DNA of 44,464 nucleotides, taken from the IMG/VR virus record IMGVR_UViG_2061766007_004279; one strand, given 5' to 3'. The DNA is from an uncultured virus (IMG/VR IMGVR_UViG_2061766007_004279). Taxonomy: Duplodnaviria > Heunggongvirae > Uroviricota > Caudoviricetes. Positions 2,664 through 44,154 of the stretch are shown one piece after another (positions within the stretch are counted from its first letter, which is position 1; each line of letters begins with the position of its first letter). The position numbers were made by a program, and so were the translations under genes. The notes beneath the pieces were generated by a model, which was given only the letters and a program-made list of their open reading frames with translations, searched no databases and was not told the origin of the DNA.

Positions 2664-2713
2664 ACACCTCATCCGTCAGCCGGGGGCTGACACCTTCCCC
2701 TCAAGGGGAAGGC
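2664..2713 (+). repeat. Family-1 double-hairpin repeat, intergenic
   Basis: ACACCTCATCC-gtcagcc-ggg-ggctgac-ACCTTCCCC-TCAA-GGGGAAGGC. Confidence 0.9.
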
Positions 2714-2735
2714 TTTCAGAGGAAGGAGAAATGAG

Positions 2736-4452
2736 ATGGCGAAGAAATCGGGCGTGAGCATCCAGAGGACGGTGTACGCGACCTTCCGGGGCGCGGACTT
2801 CTCCACGGATCCCTCGCTTGTGGACCAGAGCCGGAGCCCGCTGTGCACCAACATCATCGCCGACGGCGGCGGCATGCCGCAGAAGCGGGACGGCTGGCGG
2901 GTGCTGCATACGCTGTCAGGCCGCGTGAACGGCCTGCACTCCGCGGCCTTCTCCGGAGCGGTGAAGAAGCTGGCGCACGTGGGCACGAAGCTGTATGTGT
3001 TCGAGGATGACGGCGTCCCGGAAGAACTGGAAGGCATCACGCTGCCGGACCACAAGAGCCGGAGCGCGTATCTGGACGGGAAACTGTGGATCGTGACCGG
3101 CGGCGGGTTCTATGCGTACGACGGCACGGCCGCGGCGAAGGTGTCCGACGGCGGCGCGTACATCCCGACCACGACCATCACGCGGACGCCGGCCGGCGGC
3201 GGCGTGAGCTACGAGGACGTGAACCTGCTCACTCCCTACCGGAAGAACGCCTTTCAGACGGACGGGACGAGCGTGACCTTCACGCTGGACGGGGAGATCG
3301 ACCTGACGGGCGACGTGACCTGCTGGGTGTGGGGCGTGGAGACGACACCGTACGACATCGACCGGCGGAACGGCACCGTGACCTTTGAGACCGCGCCGGC
3401 GGCGCCGGAGGCGGGGGCCGNNNNNNNNNNNNNNNNNNNNNNNNNNNNNNNNNNNNNNNNNNNNNNCCGGATCGACAAGTGCACGATCCTGTCCACCTAC
3501 GGCGTGGGGACGAACGACCGGCTGGTGCTCTCCGGGAACCCGGACTTCCCGAACCTGGACTGGATCAGCGCCATCGGGGATCCGACCTACTTCCCGGACC
3601 TGGGATACTCCACCATCGGCGGGGAGAACACCGCGATCCTCGGCTACCTGCGCGTGGGGAGCTCGCAGGCCATCGTGAAGGCGGACGACGGGCAGGACTC
3701 CTCCGTGTTCCTGCGGACGGCGGAGATCGGCAGCACGGGCGACGCGGCGTTCCCGATCCGGCAGGCCATCGCCGGCGTGGGAGCGGTGAGCGCGGGCAGC
3801 TTCGCGTCTTTGCTGGACGACCCGCTGTTCCTCTCCCGGAACGGGATCATGGCGATCGCGTCCAACTCCATCACGAGCGAGAAGATCTCACAGGGGCGGA
3901 GCTACTACGTGAACGCGAAGCTCACCAAGGAAGAAGGACTGGGCGAGGCGGAGGCGGTGGTCTACGGCGGCATGTACCTGCTGTCGACCGGGAGCGGCCA
4001 CGTATACGTGATGGACGGACGCCAGAACAAAAGCTACAAGAGCGCCAGCTTGGGCGACTTCATATACGAGTGCTACTACTGGGAGGATATGCCGGCGCGG
4101 GTGTGGATGTGCCGGAAGAGCGGGACCGGCGAGAGCCTGTACTTCGGCACGGAGGACGGCAGGATCTGCAAGGTGAACTCCGACGTGGAGGGCATGAACC
4201 GCTACAGCGACGGCGGGACCCTGATCCCCGATACGCAGACGATCGTGAACGGAGAGGCCATCGAGGCGGTGTGGAGCACCAAGTACGACGACGACGGCAC
4301 GCCGGCCATCCTGAAAACGATGCTGAAGCGGGGCTGCTGCGTGACGATAAAGCCCTACGCGCGGAGCTCCGCGCAGGTGTACTTCCGCAGCGACCGGAGC
4401 GGCGGNNNNNNNNNNGAAGCATTTCGTCATCGGCAACTATGCGAAACGGTGA
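2736..4452 (+). CDS. Packaged-DNA stabilization/nozzle-like protein, copy A (gapped)
   Basis: Follows the portal. Beta-rich (YATFRGADFSTDP, PTYFPDLGY, LYFGTEDGRICK). Homolog at 13069-14953. Ends KHFVIGNYAKR*. Confidence 0.65.
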
Positions 4453-4474
4453 TGGGGGCTGCGTTGATCGACGG

Positions 4475-4512
4475 GATCTCTCACCGGTGTGAGCACCGGT
4501 TCGAGAATGGCA
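4475..4512 (+). repeat. Family-2 hairpin repeat
   Basis: GATCTCTC-accggtg-tgag-caccggt-TCGAGAATGGCA; matches 29306, 30372, 36233 and 11147. Confidence 0.8.
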
Positions 4513-4533
4513 TTAAAGGAGGGGCAAAACGTT

Positions 4534-4650
4534 ATGAAATGTCCGAAATGCGGGATCGAGATGAAGCGGGAGACGGCCGGCAGGTGGGTCTGCCGGAATC
4601 CGAAGTGCAACATGAGCAAGGGAGGAAAAGAGCATGGCAACGAAGGATGA
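4534..4650 (+). CDS. Small zinc-ribbon protein (38 aa), copy A
   Basis: MKCPKCGIEMKRETAGRWVCRNPKC; RBS AAGGAGG; conserved homolog at 15023-15124. Confidence 0.7.
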   Translation: MKCPKCGIEMKRETAGRWVCRNPKCNMSKGGKEHGNEG

Positions 4651-4870
4651 ACTGATCAGGGCGTATACCGACACGGGGAGCGGAAGGCAGGCCGTGCAGG
4701 ATCCGGTGGCGCAGGCGTACCGGCAGGCCGCANNNNNNNNNNAAAGCATTTCGTCATCGGCAACTATGCGAAGAGATAAGGAGGACGGCGGCATGAAATG
4801 TCCGAAATGCGGGATCGAGATGAAGCGGGAGACGGCCGGCAGNNNNNNNNNNGGCGCAGTATTACAAGGG

Positions 4871-5579: not shown

Positions 5580-5592
5580 AAGGAGAAACGAC

Positions 5593-6153: not shown

Positions 6154-6154
6154 T

Positions 6155-6200
6155 CCCCCCTTAGTCCGCTGCGGCGGACAGCTCCCCCCGAGGGGGAGCC
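6155..6200 (+). repeat. Family-1b double-hairpin repeat
   Basis: CCCCCCTTA-gtccgc-tgcg-gcggac-A-gctccccc-cga-gggggagc. Same architecture as family 1; partial relatives at 11091-11114, 39610-39631 and 43379-43386. Confidence 0.65.
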
Positions 6201-6564: not shown

Positions 6565-6570
6565 AATGCT

Positions 6571-6740: not shown

Positions 6741-6762
6741 AAGGAGATGAAANNNNNNNNNN

Positions 6763-11088: not shown

Positions 11089-11090
11089 GG

Positions 11091-11175
11091 CCCCCCTCAG
11101 CCGCTTCGCGGCAGNNNNNNNNNNNNNNNNNNNNNNNNNNNNNNNNCAGTCTGCGGACTGGTTCGGAATGACAGA
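11091..11175 (+). repeat. Family-1b and family-2 repeats upstream of portal B, interrupted by a gap
   Basis: CCCCCCTCAGCCGCTTCGCGGCAG, then CAGTCTGCGGACTGGTTCGGAATGACAGA. Confidence 0.65.
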
Positions 11176-11186: not shown

Positions 11187-13076
11187 ATGAGAAGAACGAA
11201 ACGAAAGAACACCGAGCCGGTGGTGACGGGGTACGACTACTCTGACCGGGAGGCGCGGGAGGTCACGGTGCAGGAGCTGTTCCACCGGGCCAAGAACGCC
11301 CGGACGGTGCAGGAGAGCGAGTGGCAGCGGTTCAACGACTACTACAACGGGATCCACGACGTCACCCGGGAGACCATGGACTACTGCCGGGAAAACGACC
11401 TGCCCTGGGTGCCGGCAAACATGCCGGACCCCTGGATCATGGTGGAAAGCCAGATCGATCCCAACGTGCCGGAGCCGGAGTTCCACGGCCGGGACTCCGA
11501 CATGGACAGCGCCAAGGCCAGGCAGCGGGAGTTCGCGGTGAAGTACATCATCGAGAACAACCGCCTGGCGGACATGAACACCCGGAACGAGCGGCGGCTG
11601 CTGAAGCTGGGGGACGCCTTCTGGAAGGCCTACTGGGATCCCGCCATGCGCTGCGGCGTGAACGAGGGGGACATCCGGGTGAAGGATATCCCCGTGGACG
11701 CGATCTTCCCGGATCCCTCCGTCCGGGACGGCACCATCCAGGACGGACAGTATCTGGATTTCGTGTACCGGCTGCATAAGGTGCGCTTCTGCCAGATGTT
11801 CCGGAAGGAGCTGGACGAGCTGGGGATCACCCAGGAGGACATCCTCTCCCAGGACTACGTGGAGCGGACCGGGATCTTCGACATGACCACCGCCATCGAC
11901 GACCTGGACGATACGGTGCAGGTGCTGGAGCACTGGTTCCGGCAGCCGGAGGAGACCAAGGGGAAGAACGGCGAGACCGTCCCGGCCGGGGCGGTGGGCT
12001 GCTCCATCCAGGCGGGCGGGCGTGAGCTGCGGTACATACCCAACTACTGGGAGCGGACCTGCAAGCAGAACCAGCTCTTCCCCTTCGTACATTACTGGCG
12101 GATCCAGGACGAGAACCAGATCTGGAACAAGAGCGAGCTGTTCCCCATCCTGGATCTGGTGGACGCGGCGGACCGGAAGCTCAGCATGGGGATCCTCAAC
12201 GACGCCTTCATGGCCAACGACATCCTGCTGGTGGAGGAAAACGCCCTGGCCGACGGCACCGAGCTCACCAACGAGCCGGGGGCCGTGGTGAAGCTGAAGG
12301 CCAACGCCATGGGGAAGGTCCAGCGGCTGGGCGGGCTCCAGAGTCTGGCCAACGCCAGCGTGGGGATCGAGTGGTTCAAGGGCCAGATCGAGCGGGCCAA
12401 CCGGCAGTACGACACCAGCATGGGCAAGGAGGCGGCCCGGGTGACCACCGCCACGGGCATGGCCATGCTGCGCTCCGACGCCCAGGGACAGGCGGACATC
12501 AAGCGGGCGGACCGGAACAGCGGGTTCGAGCGGCTGTACGAGCTGCTGGACTGGCTGGCCCTGGAGTTTTTCGACGACGATCGGATGCTGTTCCTGGGGG
12601 CGGACAAGGAGAAGGACCGGGAGGCCGAGCGGATGCGCTTCAACAGCGACGACCTCTCGGAGATCATGCCGGAGATCCGGGACCTGAACGGGGACGTGGT
12701 GCGGGAGAGCTGGACCTACTGGCCCCGGGTGGACGTGACGATCACGGCCGGGGACGGGGTGATCCGGAGCAAGCAGGCCACCCTGCAGGCGCTGCAGACC
12801 CTCACCCAGGCCCAGATCACGGCAGATAACTGGAAGCTGTTCGCCGCCCAGCTGGATATCCTGGACATCCCCGGGAAGCAGGATATCGTGAGAGAGTGGG
12901 AGAGCAAATTCGCCGCGCCGCAGATGCCGGGGATGGATGCCATGGGAGCCATGGGAACGGCCACCTCATCCGCCCCTGTCGGGGCACCTTCCCCTCGAGG
13001 GGAAGGCATGAGCGGGGGCGGGAATATGCCCGGGGCGGTGAGCCTGCCGCTGATGGGAGGGGAGCCCATTGTCTAA
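11187..13076 (+). CDS. Portal protein (P22-like), copy B, intact
   Basis: 629-aa ORF with GGGAGG RBS. Portal-like motifs (WQRFNDYYNG, GDAFWKAYWD, FPFV, EPGAVV, ATGMAMLRSDA). The C-terminus includes a family-1 repeat. Confidence 0.85.
   Translation: MRRTKRKNTEPVVTGYDYSDREAREVTVQELFHRAKNARTVQESEWQRFNDYYNGIHDVTRETMDYCRENDLPWVPANMPDPWIMVESQIDPNVPEPEFHGRDSDMDSAKARQREFAVKYIIENNRLADMNTRNERRLLKLGDAFWKAYWDPAMRCGVNEGDIRVKDIPVDAIFPDPSVRDGTIQDGQYLDFVYRLHKVRFCQMFRKELDELGITQEDILSQDYVERTGIFDMTTAIDDLDDTVQVLEHWFRQPEETKGKNGETVPAGAVGCSIQAGGRELRYIPNYWERTCKQNQLFPFVHYWRIQDENQIWNKSELFPILDLVDAADRKLSMGILNDAFMANDILLVEENALADGTELTNEPGAVVKLKANAMGKVQRLGGLQSLANASVGIEWFKGQIERANRQYDTSMGKEAARVTTATGMAMLRSDAQGQADIKRADRNSGFERLYELLDWLALEFFDDDRMLFLGADKEKDREAERMRFNSDDLSEIMPEIRDLNGDVVRESWTYWPRVDVTITAGDGVIRSKQATLQALQTLTQAQITADNWKLFAAQLDILDIPGKQDIVREWESKFAAPQMPGMDAMGAMGTATSSAPVGAPSPRGEGMSGGGNMPGAVSLPLMGGEPIV
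12962..13007 (+). repeat. Family-1 repeat, in frame in portal B
   Basis: Encodes TSSAPVGAPSPRGEG. Confidence 0.9.
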
Positions 13077-14953
13077 GAAATCGGGCGTGAGCATCCGGAG
13101 CACCATCTACGCCACGTTCCGGGGGGCGGACTTTTCCACGGATCCCTCCCTGGTGGAGAAATACCGGTCCCCGCTGTGCACCAACATCGTGGCGGACGCC
13201 GGGGGCATGCCCCAGAAGCGGGACGGCTGGCGGGTGCTGCATACCCTCACCGGGAAGGTGAACGGCCTCCACGCCGGGGTGTTCAGCGGCAACGCTAAGA
13301 AGCTGGCCCACGTGGACACCAAGCTGTACGTCTGGGACGACGAGAGCGCGCCCACACAGCTGCTCACCGGCCTGCCGGACAAGAAGAGCCGGAGCGTGTA
13401 CCTGAACGGGAAGCTGTGGATCGTCACCGGCGGCGGGTTCTACGTGTACGACGGGAGCACGGCCAGCAAGGTCTCAGCGGCCTCCGATGTGTACATCCCC
13501 ACCACCACCATCACCCGCATGCCCACCGGCGGCGGCGTCTCCTACGAGGACGTGAACATGCTCACGCCCTACCGGAAGAACGCCTTCCAGACCGACGGCA
13601 CCTCCAAGACCTTCACCCTGGACGGGGATATCGACGACACCGGGACGGTGACCTGCTGGGTATGGGGCGTGGAGACCGTGCCGGACAGCATCGACCGACA
13701 GAACGGGACCGTGACCTTCACCACTGCGCCGGCGGCGCCGGACGCGGGGCAGGAGGACGGGCTGGTGGTGCAGTTCCCCCATACGGTGACGGGCTACACC
13801 GACCGGATCGACAAGTGCTCCGTGATCACCACCTACGGATTCGGTACCAACGACCGGGTGGTGCTCTCCGGCAATCCGGATCTTCCCAATCAGGACTGGA
13901 TCAGCGGACTGAACGACCCCACGTATATCCCGGACCTGAGCTATACCGCCGTGGGCAGCGAGAGCACCGCCATCCAGGGCTACTGCCGGCTGGGGAGCTA
14001 CCAGGGGATCGTGAAGAGTGACGACGGGAAGGACAGCACCATCTTCCTCCGGCGGGCGGAGATGGACGACGGGGAGGCGGTGTTCCCCCTGCAGCAGGCC
14101 ATCGCCGGCGTGGGGGCCGTGAGCCCCGGGAGCTTTGCCTCCCTGCTGGACGACCCGCTGTTCCTCTCCCGGAACGGGGTGTACGCCATCGCGTCGAACA
14201 GCATCACCAGCGAGAAGATCTGCCAGGGGCGGAGCTTCTATGTGAACGCCCAGCTGACCAAAGAGACGGGGCTCAGCGACGCGGAGGCGGTGATCTGGAA
14301 CGGGATGTACCTCCTGGCCCTGCCCAACGGCCACGTGTACGCCATGGACGGCCGGCAGAGCAAGAGCTACAAGAGTGCCAGCCTGGGGGACTTCGTGTAC
14401 GAGTGCTACTACTGGGAGAACGTGCCCGCCCGGGTGTGGATGTGCTGGAAGAGCGGCACCGAGGAGAGCCTGTACTTCGGCACCGAGGACGGGAGGATCT
14501 GCAAGGTGAACTCCGATATCGCCGCCATGTACCGGTACAGCGACGGGGGCACCCGGGTGACGGGGACCCAGGAGATCACCGGCGGGGCGGCAATCGACGC
14601 GGTGTGGAGCACCAAGTACGACGACGACGGCACACCGGCGATCCTGAAGACCATGCTGAAGCGGGGCTGCTGCGTGACCATCAAGCCCTACGCCCGGAGC
14701 AGCGGGACGGTGTACTTCCGGAGCGACCGGACCGCCGGGACGGAGCGGCAGGGGGNNNNNNNNNNNNNNNNNNNNNNNNNNNNNNNNNNNNNNNNNNNNN
14801 NNNNNNNNNNNNNNNNNNNNNNNNNNNNNNNNNNNNNNNNNNNNNNNNNNNNNNNNNNNNNNNNNNATCGCCCGGAACAGCGAGGTGAACGAGGGGTTCG
14901 GGATCTTCCAGATCACCAAGCACTATGTGACGGGGAACTATGCCAAGAGATGA
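13069..14953 (+). CDS. Packaged-DNA stabilization/nozzle-like protein, copy B
   Basis: TTG start overlapping the portal stop. Homolog of 2736-4452. After the gap the true frame ends KHYVTGNYAKR* at 14953. Confidence 0.7.
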
Positions 14954-14998
14954 CACCTCATCCGGCGCTGCGCGCCACCTTCCCCTCAAGGGGAAGGC
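14953..14998 (+). repeat. Family-1 repeat immediately after a stop codon
   Basis: ACACCTCATCC-ggcgc-tgc-gcgcc-ACCTTCCCCTCAAGGGGAAGGC. Confidence 0.9.
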
Positions 14999-19000: not shown

Positions 19001-22000
19001 TACCTCAATGACATCCAGAGATGCCATGATCTATGGGATCAGTTGGATATGCCGGATTTTTCGATCTTTGATACTTCTTCCGGAGAAAGCCGTTTGGAAC
19101 CATCTTCCATAAGCGAAGCAAGGTTCACAGAGGAACGCAAAGGCCCCCAGGTTCCGCCGGAAAGCTCAAGCAGCTCTTTGCCGGACTCTACGGAAAAAAC
19201 CCTGCCTTCAGATGAACGGACAAACATAGATACTCCCCCTTCCGATAAAAGTATATCACAATCGGAGACAGGAGTCAACGAGAAGACCACAGAAAAGAGC
19301 GTACGCGAATCTGCTGCGGTAATAGTAGGCAGCGGGCCTTCTGTTACAGAAAGAAAAGGAAACAGCTTGGCCAAGATTCTGGCAGACAAAATCAGCGCCA
19401 TTCAGCATATGGATCCGGTAACATCATTGTCTGGGCATGAATTGAATGACAGAAGCAAAAAGCCGATGCAGCAGATCATGGAGTTCTTTGCTAAGATTGG
19501 AAACCGCGTCACGAGGGACAACTTTGGAGAGGTGATTCTGGGGCAGTACGGAGCCGATGCAGTTATTAACCACAAACCGCTAAACAGGGCCAAGATGGTA
19601 ACGCTGGAAGCCGTACCGAATGTCATCCGCCACGGGGAAATGATCGGGTATGATCCAGACTGGAAAGGAAGGGGATATGCTTCCTTCATATTTGCTGCAC
19701 CAGTGAAGATTGCCGGAGAAACTGTGTATGTTGCAGCGGTGGTTAATCAGGTGAATGGAAACCAGTTTTATCTGAATGAATGCGTTGACTCGAATGGGAA
19801 CTATGTGAGAATAACAGAAGACCCATCCGGCAACGCAAAAACCGGACTTACCGTTCAAGACGGAATTACCGGAGGGCCGAATGGATCTTCCAGTAATAGT
19901 ATAACCGATGCCGCCGAAAAAAGCAACCCCCAAAATGAAGGCCGGGCCAGCGCGGAGGTGGACACCGGCCGGGCGGAGGACCGCCGTTCTCTGGAGCAGG
20001 AGTACAAGGAGCGGACGGAGGCGTATCTGGCGGCCAGCAACCGGAACGACACGGAGTATGACTACGCCGGTGAGATGGCCCGGATCCAGGAGCTGGAGAA
20101 GAAGCTGGGGGAGATGAACACCTCATCCGCCGAACAGAGTTCGGCACCTTCCCCTCAAGGGGAAGGCGAGGCCCAAGGGGAAGGCAAGGCCATGGCGGAG
20201 CTCATGGAAGTGGGCGAGGCCACGGTGGAGAACGACAGCGGGAAATACACCCTGCAGGTGCGCCGGAAGGGCGAGGGGTACCAGGCACGGATCTCCCGTG
20301 ACGGGAGGCTGGACCGGGTACAGACCTTTGAAACGCCACAGGAGGCGGCGGAATACGCTCTCTCCTACGTGGACGGACAGACCCAGGCCCGGACGGACGC
20401 AGAGTTGGACAACGAGCGCAGTGAGCAGCGGGAGAGGCCCGGACCCCACTGGCCCACCGGGAGAGAGTTCAGCGAGGAGATCATCCGCCAGAAGGAGAAC
20501 AAGGCGGCGGAGGCCGCCACCCAGACGCTGCGGGAGCGGATCCGGCGGGCCGACGAGGAACTGCGCGCCCTTCGAAGACTGGACAAGACCACCGGACTGA
20601 CGGACCAGCAGAGAGCCCACATGAACGACGTCCAGGAGACGCTGGACATCATGAACGACGAGCTGACCAAGCGGAAGGGCCGGAGAAAGGCGAAGAAAGA
20701 AGCGGCCGGGAAGGTCACGGAGAACAAGCCCACACGGAGCGCCGCCGAAGCGAAGAACGCCCTCATGGATCTGTTCCACACCGCCGCCGGCGAGCGTGCG
20801 GACGTGGGGCGGCAGATCGAGGCGAAGCTGGCCGAGATTGCCCGGACCGGGAAGATCACCGAGGAGAGCCGTCAGCAGCTGTATGACCTGCTGATCGAAG
20901 CGGGCGCCGTGCCCAAGCAGGCGGAGGACACCTTCCGGGAGATCCGGAACTGGCTCCGGGGACAGCGGATCTACGTGAACGAGCAGGAGCGCGCCGACCT
21001 GGGCGACGATTTTGAAGCTCTGCGCCGGCGGGCCTGGGGCGCCGGGATCTACCTGACCAACGACATCCGGGACGGCCGGATCGACGGCGTGAACGGCGAG
21101 CTGGCGGAGACCTTCGGGGAGAACATGTTCCCCACAGACGAGGCGCTGAGCGACATGCTCAACAACATGATCGACCTGGCGGACCGGGGAAAGACCACAC
21201 AGCAGACACTGCATGAGGCCATCCGGGGCGAGGCGAAGGAGACCGGTGTGAGCGCCAACGAGATCTACGCCGACATGTTCAGCCGGATGGACGAGACGCT
21301 ACGGACCTTTGCCGAGAAGGCGGGGCTGGAGGTGGACCTGAAAGACCGGACCGCCACCCAGCTGGCCGNNNNNNNNNNNNNNNNNNNNNNNNNNNNNNCG
21401 GGAGAGCGAGATCCGGGGCAAGGTGCTCCGGGGGCTGCAGCGGCTATCCAAGCTCCGGGGCAAGGCAGGGCCGGAGATCCGGACGCAGGTGGACGAGGTC
21501 CTGCAGGACATCGACACCCAGGCAAGGCAGATCACCCCGGCGGGACTGGAAAACCTGCAGGCGCTCCAGAGGGCCTACGAGGAAGCCAGGGAGAAGGCCG
21601 GATACGTGGACGGGGAGAACATGGGGAACTGGATCCCCAACCCATACGTGGAGGAGCGGCTGGCTGCGCTGGGCAAGAAGCACCTGAACGACATGTCCCT
21701 GGAGGACGTGATCGAGCTGGGGCGGACGGTCTCCGCGCTGGAGAACACCATCCGGACCCAGAACCAGATGATCGGGGAGGAGTTCGACGCCACCATCGAG
21801 AGCTACGCCAACGGCGTGCGCGGAGAGGTGGAGAACGCCAAGGGCGCGAAGGCGGGCTTCCTTCACAAGTGGCTGAAGGAGGAGCACCTGAGCCCCAGGC
21901 GGTTCCTGGACATGCTGGGCGGCTGGACGGACGGCTCCATGAAAAAGCTCTCCCAGAGCCTGGAGAGCGGTCAGACGCGGATGCTGGACTTCCAGCGCCG

Positions 22001-31211: not shown

Positions 31212-31543
31212 ATGACGGTATTTGAAAAGATCGAGGCGATGCAGGCAAAGGAGAACGGCCGCACGGACGCCTGGATGGTGGGCGAGCAGCTGAAGGACAT
31301 CTGCCGCATGGAGCCCCGGAGCGCGGAGCTGATCGACAAAGATCTGGATGTGAAGGAAATGTCCATCAGAGCGGCGGCTGNNNNNNNNNNNNNNNNNNNN
31401 NNNNNNNNNNNNNNNNNNNNNNNNNNNNNNGGATCCTGCGGGAGTTCTACGGGCTGAACACCTCATCCGCCCCCGGCGGGGCACCTTCCCCTCGAGGGGA
31501 AGGCATGAGCGGGAAAATCGTGAGCTTGGAGGACTTCCTGTGA
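31212..31543 (+). CDS. Conserved phage protein upstream of pcfJ, with an in-frame family-1 repeat (31458-31504)
   Basis: RBS GGAGG; WMVGEQLKDIC..ILREFYGL-NTSSAPGGAPSPRGEG-MSGKIVSLEDFL*. Confidence 0.7.
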
Positions 31544-33233: not shown

Positions 33234-34249
33234 ATCCATTTGAAGTAAAGGACGAGACGATCGCCACCGCGTCCACCTCATCCGCCCTTCGGGCACCTTC
33301 CCCTCAAGGGGAAGGCATCGAGGCGCTGACGCCGGAGCAGCTGGGCGGGGAGATCCGGCTGCTGACNNNNNNNNNNNNNNNNNNNNNNNNNNNNNNNNNN
33401 NNNNNNNNNNNNNNNNNNNNNNNNNNNNNNNNNNNNNNNNNNNNNNNNNNNNNNNNNNNNNNNNNNNNNNNNNNNNNNNNNNNNNNNNNNACGAGGGATA
33501 CGGCGACGCCCAGGGCAGTCTTTTCGGTGTGGGAAATAATTTTCCAACGTTGGAAAAAATCAGTATTTCCAATGCTTTGCGGCTTCTGGCGGTGCCGGCG
33601 GAGGAGCGAGAGCAGGTGGCCGAGGAGCTGGACGCCGAGCACCTTTCCGCCCGGGAGCTGGAGAAGGCGCTGAAGGAGCGGGACGAGTGGCAGAAGGCCA
33701 CCGTGGACGCCAGAGAGGAAGCTNNNNNNNNNNNNNNNNNNNNNNNNNNNNNNNNNNNNNNNNNNNNNNNNNNNNNNNNNNNNNNNNNNNNNNNNNNNNN
33801 NNNNNNNNNNNNNNNNNNNNNNNNNGGAGAACAGGCCGGTGGAGGTGGCCGTGGAACGGGACGAGGAGGCCATTAAAAAGGCCGCCGAGGACGCCAGGAA
33901 GGCCGCGGAGGACGCGGCGAAGAAGGAAATGGACAAACTCCGGGAGAAGCTGGAGAAGGCCGAGAAGGCCAGAGAGAAGGCGGAGAAGGACGCGGAGGAC
34001 GCGAAGAAGCGGGCCGTCGAGGACGCCGGNNNNNNNNNNNNNNNNNNNNNNNNNNNNNNNNNNNNNNNNNNNNNNNNNNGGAAGAAGCTCCTGTCCGCCG
34101 AGAGCGGGGCCAACGTGGTCGCCGCGCTGTTCTCCCTGGGGCAGCAGAATTTCAACAGCGCACTGGAGAAGGTGACGGCCATGAAGACCACCCACCCGGA
34201 GGTGGCGGAGAAGCTGCTGGCCGGGATGGAGACCGTCATGGGCCGGCTG
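33230..34249 (+). CDS. DUF3102-like coiled-coil protein with an in-frame family-1 repeat (33274-33316); end in gap
   Basis: ISISNALRLLAVPAEEREQ..AEHLSARELEKALKERD; VEVAVE; long coiled coil. Confidence 0.75.
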
Positions 34250-34776: not shown

Positions 34777-34953
34777 ATGTTCTGGTATCTGATGGTGTTC
34801 GCGGCGCTGTGCGGAGCGGCGTGGGGGATCCGAAAAGCCCTCATCTGTCGGCCGGGGGAGGACGGACACCTCATCCGCCTCCCGCCTGCGGCGATGAGGC
34901 ACCTTCCCCTCCAGGGGAAGGCTTTTAAAGGAAAGGAGAAGGACGATGTTTGA
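34777..34953 (+). CDS. Small membrane protein whose C-terminus reads through a family-1 repeat (34866-34922)
   Basis: RBS AAGGAGG; MFWYLMVFAALCGAAWG..GHLIRLPPAAMRHLPLQGKA. Confidence 0.55.
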   Translation: MFWYLMVFAALCGAAWGIRKALICRPGEDGHLIRLPPAAMRHLPLQGKAFKGKEKDDV

Positions 34954-37368: not shown

Positions 37369-37824
37369 GTGAGGGCCGTGGCGCTGACGCCGAGGCAAAA
37401 GAGCTTTGTGGAAAACTATCTGAAGACCGGGAACGCAACCCAAGCGGCGATCTCCGCCGGGTATGCCGCCAAGAGCGCCCGGAGCCAGGGGAGCAAGCTG
37501 CTGGCCATGCCTGAGGTGCAGGAGTACCGCCGGGAGCTGGAACAGAAGCTGTTCGACGAGCTGGGGATCTCCAAGGCGTGGATCGGACGGCGGATGGTGG
37601 AGGTCGTGGACCGGTGCATGCAGGCCACGCCGGTGCTGGTCTGGGACGACGTGAAGCGGGAGAAGGTGGAGAGCGGCTTCTGGGAGTTCAACGCCCAGGG
37701 AGCCATCAAGGCGCTCCATGAGCTGTATGTGCAGCTGGGGTATGCCCAGGGCCAGGAGGAGACGAAGGAGCAGAGGCAGAGCTTCGAGGACTGGCTGGCG
37801 GAGCAGGGGGAGAGCGGGCTGTGA
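37369..37824 (+). CDS. terS: Terminase small subunit
   Basis: LTPRQKSFVENYLKTGNATQAAISAGYAAKSARSQGSKLL. The start may be GTG 37378. Confidence 0.92.
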   Translation: MRAVALTPRQKSFVENYLKTGNATQAAISAGYAAKSARSQGSKLLAMPEVQEYRRELEQKLFDELGISKAWIGRRMVEVVDRCMQATPVLVWDDVKREKVESGFWEFNAQGAIKALHELYVQLGYAQGQEETKEQRQSFEDWLAEQGESGL

Positions 37825-37909
37825 CACCTCATCCGGCCGCGGNNNNNNNNNNNNNNNNNNNNNNNCGCCGGGGGCGCCGGCCCCTACGAGAAGGACGGGA
37901 GGTGCAAGC

Positions 37910-39500
37910 GTGAATCCATTGGTGGCAAGAGACTATATCGAGGGATGCTTGAAGATCCGGACGAAGAGCGGGGCGGTGATCCCATTCCGGTTCAACCCGG
38001 CGCAGGAGAAGCTGTACGCCGTGGCACGGAAACAGCAGGAGGCGGGGAAGCCCGTGCGGATCATCATCCTGAAGGCGAGACAGCTGGGGTTTTCCACGCT
38101 GACAGAGGGCCTGATCTTCCACGCCTGCGCCACAAGGAAGAATACCAACGCCCTCATCGTCACCCACCGGGAGGACGCCACGGCGAACCTGTTCCGCATG
38201 TCGAAGCTCTTTTACGACGAGCTGCCGGAGCCCATCCGGCCCATGCTGAAAGCCAGCAACGCCCAGGAGCTGATCTTCGAGAACCCCACACGGAGCCCGA
38301 AGGAGAAGGCGGAGCGGCCGGGGCTGCGGTCCCGGCTGCGGTGCGCCACGGCAGGGGGGAAGGGCATCGGGCGATCCGACACGCTCCAGTGCGTGCATCT
38401 TTCGGAGTACGCCTTCTGGCCGGAGGGACCGGACGGGAAGGCCGCCACCCTGACGGGGATCCTGCAGGCCGTGCCGGCCATGCCGGGGACCATGGTGGTG
38501 ATCGAGAGCACCGCCAACGGCTACGAGGACTTCAAGGAGCGGTGGGACGCCGCGTCCGCCGGGGAGAACGACTTCGAGGCGGTGTTTTTCGCCTGGTTCG
38601 AGAACCCGGAGTACGCCATGGAGCCGGTGCCGGGGACGGAGTGGGACCCGGAGGAGCGGGAGCTGATGGAGCGGTACGGTCTCACGGAGGGGCAGATGGC
38701 GTGGCGGCGGTGGTGCATCGCCAACAACTGCGGCGGGGACATCGACATGTTCCGGCAGGAGTACCCGGCCAACCCGGACGAGGCGTTTTTGCATTCCGGC
38801 ACGGGCGTGTTCGACAACGAGCAGGTGATCCTGCAGCGGGAGATGGCGCCGGAGACTGTGAGGCGGGGGGACTTTGTTTGGGAAGAGGGCGAAGGACACC
38901 TCATCCGCCCCTTCGGGGCACCTTCCCCTCAAGGGGAAGGCACGGAGGGCGGGCCGTGGAGGTTTGAAGAAAGCCCGGTGGGGGCGGTGCGGATCTGGAA
39001 GGNNNNNNNNNNNNNNNNNNNNNNNNNNNCTGGGGGGCGATACCGCCGGGGAGGGCTCCGACTGGTTCACCGCCCACGTCATCGACAACAGCACCGGGGA
39101 GCAGGTGGCCGCCCTCCGAAGACAGTACAGCGAGCCGGAGTACGTGCGGCAGGTGTACGCCCTGGGGATGTTCTACAACGCTGCCCTGGTGGGGATCGAG
39201 ACCAACTTCTCCACCTACCCGGTGATGAAGCTGCAGGAGCTGGGCTACCCAAACCAGTACGCCCGGGAGCGGGAGGACACGTACACCCGGCAGGTGAAGA
39301 AGAGCTACGGCTTCCGCACCGACAGGCAGACCAGGCCCCGGGCCATCGCCAACCTGGTGGAGGTGTTCAGCAATCATCCGAGGTGGTTCAGGGACGCCGA
39401 GCTGCTGGGGGAGATGCTGACCTTCTGCTACAACGAGGACCACCGGCCGGAGGCGCTGGCNNNNNNNNNNNNNNNNNNNNNNNNNNNNNNNNNNNNNNNN
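37910..39500 (+). CDS. terL: Terminase large subunit (end in gap 39461-39571)
   Basis: FRFNPAQ, ILKARQLGFST, HLSEYAFW, IESTANG, QEYPA; nuclease domain LGGDTAGEGSD and GIETN. Confidence 0.93.
38896..38941 (+). repeat. Family-1 repeat, in frame in TerL
   Basis: Encodes HLIRPFGAPSPQGEG between the ATPase and nuclease domains. Confidence 0.9.
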
Positions 39501-39632: not shown

Positions 39633-39955
39633 ACACCTCATCCACCGCAAGCGGTCCCCCTTCCCCTCGAGGGGAAGGCAAGAGGGGAGGAGATGCGTTT
39701 TCGCGTATGGCAAAATGACGGAAATTTTCCGGGAAGGAGTGGAAAAAAGCTCCTTCCCGGTTTTTTCATACCCGAAAACGCTTTGGTTTCCAACAGGTAC
39801 AGAATTTCGTGAAAGTTCAACAAAAAAGTTGCAGTACAAGGTCAACATCGGCTTGTTAGGGTGTATGCAGGACCAAAGAGCAGAGGGGGACGTTCTCCCT
39901 CATCCGCCGGGCAGCGCCCGGCACCTTCCCCCGCTGGGGGAAGGCATTTCGCCGC
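39633..39955 (+). repeat. Two intergenic family-1 repeats (39633-39679 and 39898-39955)
   Basis: First stems are accgc/gcggt and gccgggc/gcccggc; both are followed by a CCTTCCCC..GGGGAAGG hairpin. Confidence 0.85.
39729..39766 (+). terminator. Intrinsic terminator after terL
   Basis: CCGGGAAGGAG-10 nt loop-CTCCTTCCCGG-TTTTTT. Confidence 0.75.
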
Positions 39956-40902: not shown

Positions 40903-40914
40903 GCCTGCAGGAAA

Positions 40915-40995
40915 ACACCTCATCCGCCGGGCAAAGCCCGGCACCTTCCCCTCAAGGGGAAGGCTTTGGAGAGCGCCCCTCAAGGGGAAGGCTTT
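40915..40995 (+). repeat. Family-1 repeat plus a partial tandem copy
   Basis: gccgggc-aaa-gcccggc stem; CCCCTCAAGGGGAAGGCTTTG occurs twice. Confidence 0.9.
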
Positions 40996-41024
40996 GAAGA
41001 AAAACGAAAGGAGATTAACAAAAC

Positions 41025-41651: not shown

Positions 41652-41669
41652 GAGAGGAGAGTGTGAACA

Positions 41670-42587
41670 ATGCCTGATTTCAATGCGTGGAAGACCGATA
41701 ACTACAAGTTCGTCGGCAAGGCCTTCGACTTCGCCTACGCGGATCGGCTGAACAAGCTGAGCCCCGTCATCGGCGAGGTCAACGCCAAGAGCATCGACTA
41801 CGAGCTCACCGGCTCCGGCGGATACGGCGAGCTGGCCCGGTACGACGGGAAGAACCTCAACGAGGGCAGCCTGCACCGGGGCTTCAAGACCATCCTCCGT
41901 CCCGACGAGTTCACCATGTCCGTCCCCGTGGGCTACAAGGCCGCGAAGATCGACAAGATGGGCGAGACCCGGAAGGTGGGCGCCAAGCTGGGCGACAGCG
42001 CCGCCATGACCGTGTACCTGCACGTGCTGCGGATGTTCGCCCACGCCTGGGACAGCAACTACACCGGCGGCGACGGCGTGANNNNNNNNNNNNNNNNNNN
42101 NNNNNNNNNNNNNNNNNNNNNNNNNNNNNNNNNNNNNNNNNNNNNNNNNNNNNNNNNNNNNNNNNNNNNNNNNNNNNNNNNNNNNNNNNNNNNNNNNNNN
42201 NNNNNNCCCGACGGCATGCCGTTCCTCTGTGACTTCGACACGGTGCTGATCGCGCCGGAGCTGGAGGAGAAGGCCAAGAAGATGTTCGGCGAGAACGCCC
42301 GGCTCATGCCGACCAAGGATCCGTTCTCTTCCGACAACGGCGCCAACCCCGTCTATGGCATGCAGTACATCGTCATGGGCGGCGGCGCGGACGGCTTCAA
42401 GTCCACCCAGTGGGCGGTGTGCGACCGCCGGCTCATGAAGGAGCTGGTGAACATCGTCTACAACACCCGGCCCACCGTGATGCAGAGCCAGCTGGACAAT
42501 CCGCTGGTGGACATGTACACCGCGTACGTGGACTTCGCCTGCGGCTGGGGCGATGCCCGGCAGATCATCTTCGGCGATCCTTCCTGA
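41670..42587 (+). CDS. Major capsid protein (HK97 fold, Mu gpT-like)
   Basis: About 305 aa; GGDGV, DTVLIAPELEEKAKKM, DFACGWGDARQIIFG. Confidence 0.8.
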   Translation: MPDFNAWKTDNYKFVGKAFDFAYADRLNKLSPVIGEVNAKSIDYELTGSGGYGELARYDGKNLNEGSLHRGFKTILRPDEFTMSVPVGYKAAKIDKMGETRKVGAKLGDSAAMTVYLHVLRMFAHAWDSNYTGGDGVXXXXXXXXXXXXXXXXXXXXXXXXXXXXXXXXXXXXXXXXXXPDGMPFLCDFDTVLIAPELEEKAKKMFGENARLMPTKDPFSSDNGANPVYGMQYIVMGGGADGFKSTQWAVCDRRLMKELVNIVYNTRPTVMQSQLDNPLVDMYTAYVDFACGWGDARQIIFGDPS

Positions 42588-42659
42588 TCGGCCGGAGAGC
42601 GTGAAAAGTAGCGGGAGGGGCAGGCGCCCCTCCCCTACGGGCTAAAAGGAGGATAGAGC

Positions 42660-42935
42660 ATGTTTAAGATCGAGAAGGTCGTGAAGGCGACGGCGGGCAC
42701 TACGGCCAGCACCGTGGAGGTCCACGGGCTTGCCTGCCTGATCCAGAACCTGAGCGACAGCGCCACCGTGTACTTCAAGGAAAAGCGCCACGACGGCAAG
42801 GCAGCGACCGCGTCCAACGGGTACGCCATCGGACCGGGGAAGGAGACCGTGATCCCCATGGTGGCCCTGGATCTGAGCATCGTGGCCAGCGCTGCCAGCA
42901 CGGACGTGCGGGTGCTGATCCTGGATATGGGGTGA
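42660..42935 (+). CDS. Small beta-rich structural protein
   Basis: RBS AGGAGG; LIQNLSDSATVYF..GYAIGPG..DVRVL. Confidence 0.65.
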   Translation: MFKIEKVVKATAGTTASTVEVHGLACLIQNLSDSATVYFKEKRHDGKAATASNGYAIGPGKETVIPMVALDLSIVASAASTDVRVLILDMG

Positions 42936-42940
42936 GAGGC

Positions 42941-43386
42941 ATGGAAAACGTGTGGAAGGCACTGATCGCGGCGTGCCTGGCCGCGCTGGGAGCGTATCTC
43001 CGGCAACTGGCCGCGCCGCTGGCCGTGCTTATCGCGGTGATGCTGCTGGACTGGATATCCGGCATCAGCGCCGCCTGGAAGACGGGAACGCTGGACAGCC
43101 GGATCGGCATCATGGGGATCCTGAAAAAAGTGGGATACCTGCTGATCGTCGCTGTCGGTATGGTTCTGGACTACCTGATACACATGCTGGCCGGGGAGTT
43201 TGGCCTGGTCCTGGAGGGAACGTACTTTGTAGGGCTTGTGGTAATAATCTGGCTGATCATCAACGAGTGCATCAGCATTTTGGAGAACACCGCCGAAACC
43301 GGCGCGCCGGTGCCGCCTTTTGTACAGAAACTTTTGGAACGGCTGAAACGGCACACGGAGGAGATCGCGGGGGAGAACACCCCCTC
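42941..43386 (+). CDS. Holin (TcdE/Phage_holin_4_1-like); end in gap
   Basis: Three hydrophobic segments; LDWISG, GILKK, INECISILEN, PVPPF. Confidence 0.88.
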
Positions 43387-43545
43387 NNNNNNNNNNNNNN
43401 NNNNNNNNNNNNNNNNNNNNNNNNNNNNNNNNNNNNNNNNNNNNNNNNNNNNNNNNNNNNNNNNNNNNNNNNNNNNNNNNNNNNNNNNNNNNNNNNNNNN
43501 NNNNNNNNNNNNNNNNNNNNNNNNNNNNNNNNNNNNNNNNNNNNN

Positions 43546-44154
43546 CAGAGCACCTACACCGGGAATATGTGGAATGACTTTCTCGCCCACGGGTTCCGGG
43601 TGGTCGGAGACGTGGATCTCTCCACCGGCGCGGGGCTGCAGCGGGGGGACGTGCTGCTGAACGTGCAGAGCCATGCCGCCATCTGTCTGGGAGGCGGAAG
43701 GATCGTACAGGCCCGGACCAACGAGCTGGGCGGCGTCACCGGCGGCAGGAGCGGAGATCAGACCGGCCGGGAGATCTGCGTCGGCGGGTATTTCAACTTC
43801 CCGTGGGACGTGGTGCTCAGGTATGAGGGGGACACCTCATCCGCCCCTGGCGGGGCACCTTCCCCTCAAGGGGAAGGCGTTTACGTGGTGCAGAGCGGGG
43901 ACAGCCTGTGGAAGATCGCGGAGGCGGTGTACGGGGATCCCTGGAAGTACCACGAGTTGGAGATCGCCAACAACACCAAAAACGCCGTGATCTATCCCGG
44001 GCAGGTGCTCATCATCCCCGGCATCGGGCAGAAGAAGGTCACGCTCACCGTGGAGGTGGAGGCGGAGACCGCCCAGCTCCTGCGGATCATGGCCCAGGGC
44101 AACGGAAAGAGCGTCGGCGAGATCATCGATCTGCTGCTGGAGGACGCGAGGTAA
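43546..44154 (+). CDS. Endolysin B: NlpC/P60-like amidohydrolase, LysM and an RHH-like tail (start in gap)
   Basis: TYTGNM..LQRGDVLLN..HAAI..GDQTGREI..YFNFPWDVVLRY; LysM YVVQSGDSLWKIA..IYPGQVLIIP. The linker 43832-43878 is a family-1 repeat. Confidence 0.82.
   Translation, partial: QSTYTGNMWNDFLAHGFRVVGDVDLSTGAGLQRGDVLLNVQSHAAICLGGGRIVQARTNELGGVTGGRSGDQTGREICVGGYFNFPWDVVLRYEGDTSSAPGGAPSPQGEGVYVVQSGDSLWKIAEAVYGDPWKYHELEIANNTKNAVIYPGQVLIIPGIGQKKVTLTVEVEAETAQLLRIMAQGNGKSVGEIIDLLLEDAR

Follow-up and report, generated by a model that had tools for sequence, protein, structure and literature searches.

A dispersed double-hairpin DNA element in rumen phages and gut Firmicutes, with a candidate DUF559 nuclease partner

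The window and the repeat element

The window analysed here is the whole 44,464-nucleotide stretch of an uncultured Caudoviricetes virus (IMG/VR record IMGVR_UViG_2061766007_004279). It carries portal, terminase and endolysin genes among others. It does not represent one clean phage genome but a chimeric scaffold, with gaps, put together from related rumen Oscillospiraceae phages. It contains 55 N runs (2954 N, many of the runs exactly 10 N), and since these break the window, reading frames across gaps are untrustworthy. The portal and phrog_3287 module is present twice (84% and 74% amino-acid identity), one gene end occurs as two alleles (at 4416 and 4743), and the end of the window repeats 6569-6746.

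Dispersed over this scaffold is a DNA repeat of 46-57 bases with two hairpins per unit. The unit comprises a conserved 11-12-base box (box 1, ACACCTCATCCG), a hairpin of free sequence (stem 1) and a conserved hairpin 2 (CACCTTCCCC-TCAA-GGGGAAGGC), and is often closed by a short T-rich tail. A 21-base hairpin-2 probe (up to 3 mismatches) found 12 sites in the window against 0 expected from 100 shuffles. Box 1 (ACACCTCATCC, 0-1 mismatch) lies 5' of each of them and also at 37824. Minus-strand matches of the probe were rejected as copies, being echoes of a near-palindrome, and no full element copy was found on the minus strand of the window. A covariance model, of the kind that the original prediction had proposed, was trained on 22 copies from other genomes; it recovered 13 copies in the window, every one on the plus strand, with scores of 37.8-68.7 bits. 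The 14 plus-strand copies listed in that prediction are real, with coordinates right within 1-3 bases; 12 are full, one is cut by a gap and one is divergent. Further members of the family are two sister-type ones (Table 1) and partial right halves at 20173 and 40980, and the gap at 43387-43545 probably hides one more copy.

Stem 1, as had been proposed, changes its sequence from copy to copy while its pairing is kept. In 22 length-matched copies taken from other genomes, pairing holds for 99.4% of cells, both sides have changed at four of the six stem-1 pairs, and the covariation score was reached by none of 500 shuffles. Maintenance of stem 1 through compensatory change is supported.

Table 1. 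Members of the element family located in the window
Position	Strand	Location	Description
2664..2713	+	between portal 'A' and phrog_3287 gene (start 2736)	full; stem 1 GTCAGCC/GGCTGAC; 68.7 bits
6153..6200	+	right after adaptor gene	sister subfamily, ATCCCCCCTTAG-hairpin-CAGCTCCCCC CGA GGGGGAGC; 25.9 bits, E=2.8e-5
11089..11114	+	upstream of portal B	left part, sister type, GGCCCCCCTCAG-CCGCTTCGCGG-CAG; cut by gap 11115-11146
12961..13007	+	portal 'B' C-terminal tail	full, in frame, ...TATSSAPVGAPSPRGEG...; stop 13074-13076, 22 codons on
14953..14998	+	after phrog_3287	full, intergenic; starts at A of stop TGA 14951-14953
20118..20167	+	giant LPD3-bearing ORF	full, in frame, ...NTSSAEQSSAPSPQGEG...
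31458..31504	+	ORF ending 31543	full, in frame, ...EFYGL-NTSSAPGGAPSPRGEG-MSGKIVSLEDFL*; 13 codons before stop
33273..33316	+	DUF3102 gene, just 5' of DUF3102 domain	full, probably in frame, ...STSSALRAPSPQGEG-IEALTPEQL...
34866..34922	+	before ribosome-binding site and ATG 34946	full, probably intergenic; 57.1 bits
35716..35761	+	144 bases past stop of gene 34946-35572	full; then AGGAGGG and ATG
37824..37842	+	between TerS and TerL	box 1 and start of stem 1, intergenic; cut by gap 37843-37865
38896..38941	+	TerL, variable stretch before LGGDTAGEG motif	full, in frame, ...EEGEG-HLIRPFGAPSPQGEG-TEGG...
39633..39679	+	after TerL	second type, ACACCTCATCC-ACCGC..GCGGT-CCCCCTTCCCC, probably intergenic; 43.7 bits
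39895..39945	+	~45 bases 5' of ATG 39990	divergent, loop CGCT, truncated box 1; 37.8 bits
40915..40964	+	before gene start 41025	full, C-terminal tail or intergenic; 66.8 bits
43832..43878	+	endolysin, exactly between ELLD and LysM	full, in frame, ...RYEGD-TSSAPGGAPSPQGEG-VYVVQSGDSL...

Copies inside genes

A firm class can be given to seven of the 14 copies: five are in frame (portal tail, giant protein, ORF ending 31543, TerL and endolysin linker) and two are intergenic (14953 and 37824); the DUF3102 copy is probably in frame and the 39633 copy probably intergenic. Of the eight copies originally placed inside ORFs five stand and DUF3102 is probable, while ORF 34777 and ORF 35562 are doubtful.

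The portal B frame is open over 11172-13076 with no gap in 11147-14755, and the copy in its tail is identical, at the same site, in two independent records from other samples (L182/G006 and L280). The giant ORF is open and gap-free over 18111-21368; its copy is followed by a partial repeat of its own right half (20173-20185), and by tblastn the related phage G007 matches one and the same frame before and after the copy, with a different, longer linker in G007 at this place. The conserved EFYGL motif fixes the frame of the 31458 copy, and another relative, G010, has a sister-subfamily element read in frame at the same place of this ORF. The DUF3102 frame is open from 33161, with no start codon between the element and the domain, and the in-frame call is only probable because of the gap at 33367-33490. 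TerL is open through its copy; at this site G007 has just a degenerate hairpin-2-like relic, and G010 a shorter unrelated stretch. In the endolysin, whose catalytic domain (ELLD) and LysM were assigned by Pfam, no gap occurs after 43545, and in L179, a homologue with 65% identity, the place of the copy is taken by an unrelated linker of 15 residues.

The six window copies that are firmly or probably in frame all end in the PSP(Q/R)GEG frame, which is also used in 10 of the 15 through-ORF readings in other records. That some copies are read in frame inside essential genes, as short Pro/Ser/Gly-rich peptides, is supported. ORFs run through 10 of 52 viral copies compared to 4 of 104 bacterial ones.

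Such in-gene copies might be assembly artefacts, i.e., chimeric joins at a repeat abundant in the metagenome. In favour of this are the gaps and the chimerism of the scaffold, a depth ~3- to 60-fold over the source-run baseline (~8-10) in element-bearing bins, and Logan contigs that end at a copy or pass from one copy to another (e.g., 40962 to 43850, 38942 to 44373). However, the in-gene copies are flanked on both sides by the same gene in the same frame, as judged by homology to G007 and G010, the portal-tail copy recurs in the two records mentioned above, and in-frame copies are present in 14 other records. A Logan contig of the probable source run covers 43546-44223, and with it the endolysin copy, with zero differences. 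The artefact reading is already largely refuted and we regard it as extremely improbable.

Gene junctions, orientation and related phages

ORFs drawn through the 14953 and 37824 copies were rejected as gap or frame artefacts, as in both cases a conserved stop (TGA 14951-14953 and TGA 37822-37824) lies at the element's first base. The phrog_3287 stop position is conserved in alleles A1 and A2, G006 and G007, and after the copy there come TTTAAC, a ribosome-binding site and then ATG. The TerS stop is conserved in G007 and G010, and TerL starts at GTG 37910. The 11089 sister-type copy likewise begins directly after a TGA stop. Near 2664 the gap at 2562-2640 hides the frame, and frames either stop at TGA 2662-2664 or read through to TGA 2732-2734. 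The gene 5' of the 34866 copy seems to end at TAA 34761-34763, and the 50-codon ORF crossing this copy is mostly element-derived; its box 1 pairs with downstream GATGAGG, and a degenerate relic lies just 5' (34838-34865). The 35716 copy probably lies before the start of the gene that follows. The likely TerL stop (TGA 39601-39603) precedes the 39633 copy by ~30 bases and gives a C-terminus, RQQRRRRRY*, similar to those of G007 and G010; in a Selenomonadaceae genome, doublets have a copy of this second type as their forward half. Homology of the gene following the 39895 copy begins near 39993. The right end of the 40915 copy is repeated over 17 bases at 40976-40992.

The element is mobile, being gained and lost among closely related phages. 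The empty site AAGAGATAA-GGAGG...ATG is found in allele A2 (4743) and in G006, while the window is filled at 14953; in the reverse case G006 is filled and the window is empty at 5560-5580. In a 95% identical relative, L280, two canonical copies occupy the junction at which the window carries the 11089 sister-type copy. No full copy is present at 73 of 77 portal-relative loci, and canonical hairpin 2 is absent from four relatives that are 90-100% complete. The filled and empty sites do not differ by simple insertion of one unit: they are also unlike in the stretch from the element to the start codon, there is no target duplication at the two filled/empty junctions inspected, and no target motif for insertion was detected. 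Sister subfamilies occupy the same sites (portal tail, EFYGL-ORF tail, upstream of portal) in related phages, which fits permissive hot spots and equally a conserved function. The proposal that the element colonises the phage is upheld as regards mobility and qualified by these shared sites and by chromosomal copies next to housekeeping genes.

A conserved function could be that of a phage cis-acting intercistronic signal on the sense transcript (partial terminator, 3'-end stabiliser or processing site), with selection retaining copies at particular gene junctions and bacterial copies serving the same purpose. Besides the occupation of the same sites by different subfamilies, orientation speaks for it: 37 copies in seven phage records have one orientation per record, on the purine-rich strand, and the sole opposite-strand match is an echo of a plus copy. 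The unit has no stop codons in its three sense frames and TGA in two of three antisense frames, but such a filter is insufficient to explain orientation in phages, because at least nine clearly intergenic copies, placed after a stop codon and ahead of the following ribosome-binding site, are all in sense too. T follows hairpin 2 at +1 in 66% and at +2 in 54% of copies, and paired changes between the EFYGL-ORF tail copies of the window and G010 preserve hairpin 2. On the other hand, presence at a given junction differs among phages that are 88-95% identical, G007 (90% complete) has no copy apart from the TerL relic, and five or six copies are located within coding sequence, in which a terminator would do harm. 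In the bacterial genome G001 orientations relative to neighbouring genes are mixed: (-,-) 9, (+,-) 6, (+,+) 5 and (-,+) 4. Statistics of loops and wobble pairs point to the opposite strand (25 G.T pairs on minus, 6 on plus), RNA-parameter energy is lower on minus in 144 of 157 copies, and no Rfam family matched the element. We consider a cis-acting signal unlikely.

Bacterial copies and the DUF559 nuclease

The element is common in diverse rumen and gut Firmicutes chromosomes. More than 121 genome_contigs stretches among the matches listed, including Oscillospiraceae, Lachnospiraceae, Selenomonadaceae and Anaerovibrio, contain its 35 conserved bases exactly, and so do 52 viral stretches. Five bacterial genomes have 12-46 hairpin-2 copies each, on both strands, against 0 for a reversed control pattern. 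The copies are singles and inverted doublets (~110 bases apart in G001, G003, G005 and G016), and genes adjoining them include ribD, glycogen synthase and a citrate transporter. With hosts assigned by metagenome bins, the bin containing the 95% identical phage contig (G016) has 21 copies, and those with 69-83% phage relatives have 0, 0, 0 and 1.

The original prediction was borne out in describing a non-autonomous, dispersed REP-like element with no enzyme for it encoded in the window. Its link to HUH (RAYT) transposases was not. Under that link the element would be a classical REP/REPIN, moved by a RAYT (HUH Y1 transposase) on single-stranded DNA at the replication fork. Short, GC-rich, dispersed palindromes, REPIN-like inverted doublets and the uniform orientation in phage records, expected of replication-fork action, all agree with this. 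Stem 1 often starts with CGTC (79 of 157 begin G-T after CC), recalling the CGTC-tagged REPs among those described by Di Nocera et al. (2013; PMC3733652). Nevertheless, Y1_Tnp (PF01797) was found in just one of the five element-rich genomes (three genes; scored per genome) and is absent from the one with 46 copies. The element has no conserved unpaired GTAG tag and no target sequence was found. There is no replication-strand bias in G001, since GC skew on the element strand is positive for 13 copies and negative for 12. Finally, the gene flanked by the element in bacteria is DUF559. We find RAYT mobilisation very improbable.

The proposed search for a nuclease gene flanked by the element did succeed in bacteria. 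Genes for DUF559, a Vsr-like PD-(D/E)XK endonuclease, are present in all five element-rich genomes versus 3 of 14 control genomes. In bacteria an inverted pair of units encloses small DUF559 genes, box 1 pointing toward the gene, and this geometry is shared by the doublets. Model matches on both sides (minus copy left, plus copy right) were obtained for 6 of 13 DUF559 matches (L347, L350, L352, L353, the first gene of L355, and L356), on one side for six further ones, and for none at one weak match. The subfamily of box 1 and hairpin 2 is particular to each DUF559 lineage and is shared where the proteins are alike (L350/L351, 92%; L353/L356, 80%). In an independent sample of 17 strong DUF559 loci, 12 have flanking inverted repeats that score at least 13 (mean of displaced controls, 8.25) and have hairpin-2-like arms; no such repeat was seen at the other five. 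Among 150 Clostridia genomes 18 have both DUF559 and the element, 2 DUF559 only, 8 the element only and 122 neither (odds ratio 137, Fisher p=3.3e-15, a test which overstates independence because the co-occurring genomes are kin). Incomplete bins could be the reason why strong DUF559 is absent from 8 of the 26 element-positive genomes, including G141 with 37 copies. Phages rarely encode such proteins: DUF559 relatives occur at just 15 viral loci, and none was found in the window, G006, G007 or G010. Position, co-variation and co-occurrence incline us, by a modest degree, to DUF559 as the putative enzyme that moves the element.

Overall, with a probability of about 0.7, the repeat is mobile, derived from the host and non-autonomous, and belongs to a large REP-like family of double-hairpin elements in gut and rumen Firmicutes. 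RAYTs are thought to drive the copying of REPs, and we liken the proposed role of DUF559 to theirs: the cognate nuclease would recognise box 1 and hairpin 2, require of stem 1 only that it forms a hairpin, and cause the units to be copied. A phage may gain copies while replicating in a host that carries the DUF559-element system. Selection would then filter the insertions, with the element tolerated in sense orientation only, and the survivors would be in-gene copies in tails and linkers, in the frame in which hairpin 2 gives the flexible peptide APSPQGEG, as well as copies that follow a stop codon and precede the next ribosome-binding site.

A dispersed double hairpin on a composite scaffold

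The repeat studied here is 46-57 bases long and consists of box 1 (ACACCTCATCC), a hairpin of free sequence (stem 1) and a conserved hairpin (hairpin 2). A 21-base hairpin 2 probe matched 12 sites in the window and none in 100 shuffled versions. Box 1 is present upstream of every probe site and also at 37824, where a gap interrupts the copy. Matches of the probe on the minus strand are echoes of its near-palindromic sequence; full minus-strand copies are absent from the window. A covariance model derived from 22 copies of other genomes recovered 13 window copies scoring 37.8-68.7 bits, all on the + strand, and a weaker copy at 6153-6200 of the sister type, a related subfamily with a different box 1 and hairpin 2. 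The dispersed double-hairpin element described in the original prediction is thus real, and the model scan proposed there also recovered copies in bacteria and other phages.

The claim that stem 1 stays paired while its sequence changes was confirmed as well. The sequence differs in almost every copy with pairing kept; pairing held in 99.4% of cells across 22 length-matched copies from other genomes, four of the six stem-1 pairs showed changes on both sides, and none of 500 shuffles reached the observed covariation score. Hairpin 2 was fixed by the selection of the 22 copies, which makes the covariation test uninformative for this part, and variants with paired changes (CTTCTCC/GGAGAAG, GCTTCCCC/GGGGAAGC) occur in other genomes. 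With respect to a possible intrinsic terminator, hairpin 2 has 8 paired bases, and among 177 copies the bases at +1, +2 and +3 after it are T in 66%, 54% and 36%; in the window no copy exceeds 3-4 T here, and the in-gene copies have none. Neither tRNA genes nor Rfam families at gathering score were found in the window. Five element-bearing loci gave only sub-threshold matches to Acido-Lenti-1 (cut-off 37 bits, scores 25.9 and 23.4), which lie on hairpin 2 and were taken as chance.

The scaffold itself is a composite. Reading frames are untraceable across its gaps, since 55 N runs, many of exactly 10 N, interrupt the window. A module of portal and phrog_3287 is present twice (700-4655 and 11187-14953; the amino-acid identities are 84% and 74%), two alleles of one gene end (A1 at 4416, A2 at 4743) are found within the first 5.6 kb, and the window end (44194-44369) repeats 6569-6746. 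The scaffold joins two or three strain variants of one phage region (1-5579 versus 10717-15100), many joins being exactly 10 N, and wraps beyond one genome length. Comparison with relatives of 35-40 kb predicts an underlying genome of about 38.6 kb (5580-44187), accompanied by a strain-variant fragment. The closest sequencing runs are bovine gut metagenomes and portal relatives are located in Oscillospiraceae bins; near-identical phage records for 35400-44464 were not found in INPHARED.

When contigs of four runs were placed on the window, the depth of element-bearing bins was about 3- to 60-fold above the source-run baseline. Contigs end at element copies or jump from copy to copy, which explains much of the poor assembly. 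Runs X3-X5 contributed short contigs that cover parts of the window and carry little information on individual copies. Some gaps probably hide further copies, and gap 43387-43545 is a candidate because the related phage G006 carries a copy there.

Several other features of the scaffold may be mentioned. A HicA toxin and HicB antitoxin pair lies mid-genome at 26670-27421 (Pfam E=5e-9 and 1e-18). Within 17381-24923 lies the giant ORF, longer than 2268 codons, which carries an LPD3 (large polyvalent protein) domain. PHROG 22978 is matched both by this ORF and by ORF 23046-24923 downstream, so that a single protein may have been divided by gap frames. A PcfJ-like protein occupies two ORFs (31676-32884 and 32889-33233), which may mean that the gene is truly divided or that gap 32785-32816 has introduced a frame error. 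Another short repeat, CAGTCTGCGGACTGG(G)TTCGG(A/G)ATGACAGA, is located at 11147-11186 and 36233-36272, directly after gaps 11115-11146 and 36160-36232. A hairpin similar to it forms stem 1 of the element beside a DUF559 fragment in the bacterial genome G003 (L357).

Translated copies and their insertion sites

The original prediction placed eight copies inside open ORFs. Five of them are firmly in frame and one (33273) probably so, while those in ORFs 34777 and 35562 (34866 and 35716) are undecided, mostly owing to gaps.

Coding status of the element copies in the window
Copy	Position	Strand	Coding status	Basis
Portal tail	12961	+	firmly in frame	gap-free region; identical copy in two records from other samples
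Giant ORF	20118	+	firmly in frame	no gap; homology to related phage G007, same frame on both sides
ORF tail	31458	+	firmly in frame	conserved EFYGL motif fixes frame; sister element in frame at same spot in related phage G010
TerL	38896	+	firmly in frame	
Endolysin	43832	+	firmly in frame	precisely between ELLD and LysM domains
Directly upstream of DUF3102 domain	33273	+	probably in frame	
Intergenic copies	14953, 37824	+	firmly intergenic	conserved stop TGA overlaps the element's first base
About 30 bases past likely TerL stop	39633	+	probably intergenic	
Other copies	2664, 34866, 35716, 39895, 40915	+	undecided	mostly owing to gaps

Hairpin 2 is read as PSP(Q/R)GEG in all six in-frame copies (five firm and one probable); a literature search with the peptide 'PSPQGEG' found no papers. 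All sense frames of the consensus are free of stop codons; in antisense, TGA occurs in two of the three frames. In-frame copies are found in 14 more records, and among sampled copies the frame stayed open for 80 codons or more in both directions in 10 of 52 viral versus 4 of 104 bacterial ones.

Comparison with relatives yielded filled and empty states at two junctions. The 14953 site is filled in phage B (the second portal and phrog_3287 module), and allele A2 and the 88%-identical G006 have TAA-GGAGG-ATG only. Clean empty sites were not obtained for in-gene copies: at the TerL, portal, giant-ORF and endolysin positions the related sequences contain a different linker or a relic. G006 carries a copy between the endolysin and an adaptor gene, and its window counterpart reads GGGAATGA-AAGGAG; this window junction lies 5' of the adaptor gene, and the gene that precedes it differs from that in G006. 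At L280, the portal locus of a 95%-identical relative, two canonical copies precede the portal where the window has a sister-type copy. A full copy is missing at 73 of 77 portal-relative loci, and four nearly complete relatives lack the canonical hairpin 2. G010 has six sister-subfamily copies (ACAATCCCTCAG ... CAGCTCCCTT ... AAGGGAGCC), all in sense orientation, and G007 retains a degenerate relic in TerL. In the portal tail of a 95%-identical relative (L180, 3840-4040), a different double hairpin (...CCCCCTTTGCACAAGGGGG-CCTTTCCGGGGGAGAAGGC) occupies the site of the window copy, representing a further subfamily or a copy in decay.

Neither of the target features sought in the original proposal emerged: no motif was found in the flanks, and no duplication was seen at two filled/empty junctions. 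Pairing of the left flank with box 1 was not significant (duplex energy -3.88 near versus -3.44 far, p=0.19), nor was flank likeness to GGGGAAGG or GGATGAGG (p=0.26 and p=0.06). The sole flank signal is the avoidance of C at position -1 (4%).

Distribution and orientation in phages and bacteria

A search with the exact conserved 35 bases and a free middle located the element in 52 viral and more than 121 bacterial stretches, the latter assigned, among the matches listed, to Oscillospiraceae, Lachnospiraceae, Selenomonadaceae, Anaerovibrio and others. The 177 copies have 137 distinct middles, and their flanks are unrelated except for a T-rich tail. Five element-rich bacterial genomes (G001-G005) have 12-46 hairpin 2 copies each on both strands, versus none for the reversed control, and copies were present in 26 of 151 genomes sampled (up to 40 matches scored per genome). 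Bacterial copies adjoin ordinary genes and are often arranged as inverted doublets with box 1 inward; in G001, reverse and forward units of a doublet are about 35-40 bases apart. In G003, in G005 and in G016, a metagenome bin holding a 95%-identical phage contig, pairs on opposite strands are separated by 33-150 bases. In five genomes the genes lying between nearby copies belong to ordinary housekeeping or toxin-antitoxin kinds; transposases are not among them.

In Anaerovibrio (G004) the element also lies inside a longer repeated leader, TATAAT...element...CATATTGAGGGG... (L263, L264, L265), located upstream of ORFs of 877-900 codons and once of a MazEF and AAA_14 cluster. These repeated ORFs have no Pfam match, and no Rfam family (hence no rRNA) was found at their loci. 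Elsewhere in the same genome (L262, G004:C1:3300-5900) two inverted copies frame a housekeeping unit, ribD with its FMN riboswitch.

In phages the orientation is strict: all 37 copies in seven phage records lie on a single strand per record, the purine-rich one. Antisense stop codons alone are insufficient to explain this bias, because at least nine of these copies are clearly intergenic. G001, with 25 single copies divided 13 versus 12 by GC skew, argues against a built-in replication-strand rule, and replication-strand bias was rejected for this genome. Orientation relative to neighbouring genes is mixed there too; co-orientation with genes in bacteria was rejected once flanks longer than 300 bases were considered, 300-base flanks giving too few calls. 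Candidate causes of the phage bias are selection in packed operons, insertion into the strand exposed during phage replication or transcription, and a function of the element itself.

Judged by loops and wobble pairs, the structured strand seems to be the complementary one. Triloops are G-N-A on that strand (T-N-C on the sense strand) in 58 of 87 cases, and with this preponderance UNCG tetraloops on the sense strand were rejected. The minus strand has 25 G.T pairs and the plus strand 6. At the outermost variable position of stem 1, 56 of the 137 distinct middles have T.C or A.C, and the reverse is almost never seen. Folding with DNA parameters showed no strand difference (77 versus 70).

A candidate nuclease partner and related repeat families

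The original prediction linked the element to RAYT, the HUH transposase with the Y1_Tnp domain (PF01797). This link was not supported. Only one of the five element-rich genomes, all draft or binned, has PF01797 (three hits in G005), and it was not found in the drafts or bins G001-G004. The search for a nuclease gene flanked by the element, suggested in the same place, did succeed: in bacteria the bracketed gene is DUF559 (PF04480), a small Vsr-like PD-(D/E)XK endonuclease gene. The window had been said to lack a recognisable transposase, and DUF559 was likewise not found in the window, G006, G007 or G010.

DUF559 is present in all five element-rich genomes versus 3 of 14 controls. At 6 of 13 DUF559 matches the covariance model finds copies on both sides (minus copy left, plus copy right) and at 6 further ones on one side, with box 1 directed towards the gene, the same orientation as in doublets. 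Every DUF559 gene has its own box 1/hairpin 2 subfamily, and the subfamily tracks protein identity. Subfamilies beside DUF559 include the family of the window (L347 in G016) and the sister family of phage G010 (L354 in G002). Among 150 Clostridia genomes sampled independently, strong stand-alone DUF559 occurred in 20, model matches in 26 and both in 18 (odds ratio 137, p=3.3e-15, a value that is too generous because the genomes are related to one another). Flanking inverted repeats were well above displaced controls at 12 of 17 sampled DUF559 loci. At one locus (G078:C32:2723-3111) the immediate neighbour of a DUF559 gene (3139-3456) is not a single flank but an array of four tandem copies with 114-base spacing.

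Full-length stand-alone DUF559 genes score 68.7-124.5 bits against a Pfam cut-off of 20.6, and the L347 protein matches PDB 3hrl_A, 'Endonuclease-Like Protein' (E=7.6e-8); the bracketed genes are DUF559 with a predicted Vsr-like endonuclease fold. DUF559 relatives are encoded at only 15 viral loci.

We tentatively propose, with a probability of about 0.35, that DUF559 nucleases are the partners of a large class of RAYT-less hairpin repeats, that nuclease and repeat lineages co-evolve, and that phages are seeded in trans, their repeats becoming linkers and tails. This would be a second, non-HUH route for multiplying REP-like DNA. A nicking endonuclease would read the conserved box and hairpin on one strand, each nuclease lineage would co-evolve with its own repeat subfamily, and phages replicating in such hosts would receive copies that turn into protein linkers and tails. 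The partnership might also explain orphan CGTC-type REPs, which have no known transposase. Which enzyme, if any, serves orphan repeats is left open in the part of Di Nocera et al. (2013, PMC3733652) available to us. Among titles and abstract openings, with most subscription journals outside coverage, no paper was found tying DUF559 or Vsr-like nucleases to such repeats. A literature search found nothing on REPIN with RAYT in Firmicutes, and no account of this element family was found in the literature searched.

REP, BIME and REPIN sequences with their RAYT are described for E. coli, Pseudomonas and Stenotrophomonas (Di Nocera et al., 2013). In the accessible part of that paper, these families share with our element short, GC-rich hairpin units in tens of dispersed copies, the occurrence of singles and inverted doublets, a small gene between two inverted units with subfamilies each tied to their own gene copy, and occasional copies inside coding regions. 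The bracketed gene differs, being an HUH Y1 transposase in REP and DUF559 here, as do the hosts: Firmicutes are not among the REP hosts named in that part. Unlike REP, the element has two hairpins and an unpaired box, a first stem of free sequence and no GTAG tag, and the phage carries it at high density, with 13-15 copies per roughly 38.6 kb. About half of the copies have a CGTC across the foot of stem 1, but this feature varies.

Rickettsia palindromic elements (RPEs) are hairpin repeats lying in frame inside protein genes. To our knowledge, RPEs are longer and confined to Rickettsia, whereas the element has 46-57 bases, is common to several bacterial families and phages and is tied to a candidate nuclease. 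Both survive in frame in protein genes, including essential ones, as short peptides at tolerant places; the likeness is one of behaviour alone. Integron attC sites have a conserved structure with a variable centre, are strand-specific and stand in one orientation on the 3' side of successive genes. The element shares these traits but has no R/L core sites and no integrase, is also found in genes, and in bacteria is scattered in both orientations.

In its accessible part, Di Nocera et al. (2013) name RPEs and describe REPs inside genes. Nadal-Molero et al. (2024, PMC11602168), as far as the available part of their survey goes, report that phage genomes seldom contain transposable DNA and that MITEs in viral genomes are few, mostly intergenic and shared with hosts. 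Like these MITEs, the element is small, non-autonomous, transferred from host to phage and usable as a host marker; unlike them, it attains a density of about one copy per 3 kb and is read in frame. The ends of a single unit (ACACC... and ...GAAGGC) are not inverted repeats, and duplication was not seen at two junctions.

With its dispersed palindromic units and inverted doublets the element behaves like REP/REPIN and, inside genes, like RPE; the draft or binned genomes give no support for a RAYT flanked by it, and it is not built as a MITE. The original view of a non-autonomous REP-like element supplying protein linkers stands for its REP-like organisation and for in-frame copies in TerL, portal and endolysin, and fails, in these draft or binned genomes, for RAYT. 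The earlier observation was largely right, its RAYT idea probably wrong, and the DUF559 lead is worth testing.

The main gain is a testable candidate enzyme for REP-like repeats without RAYT, namely DUF559, bracketed by cognate pairs and co-occurring with them. The element family is also a marker of the likely phage host. A tiny element translated within terminase, portal and endolysin genes at about one copy per 3 kb represents selfish DNA able to build linkers in tightly packed genomes.
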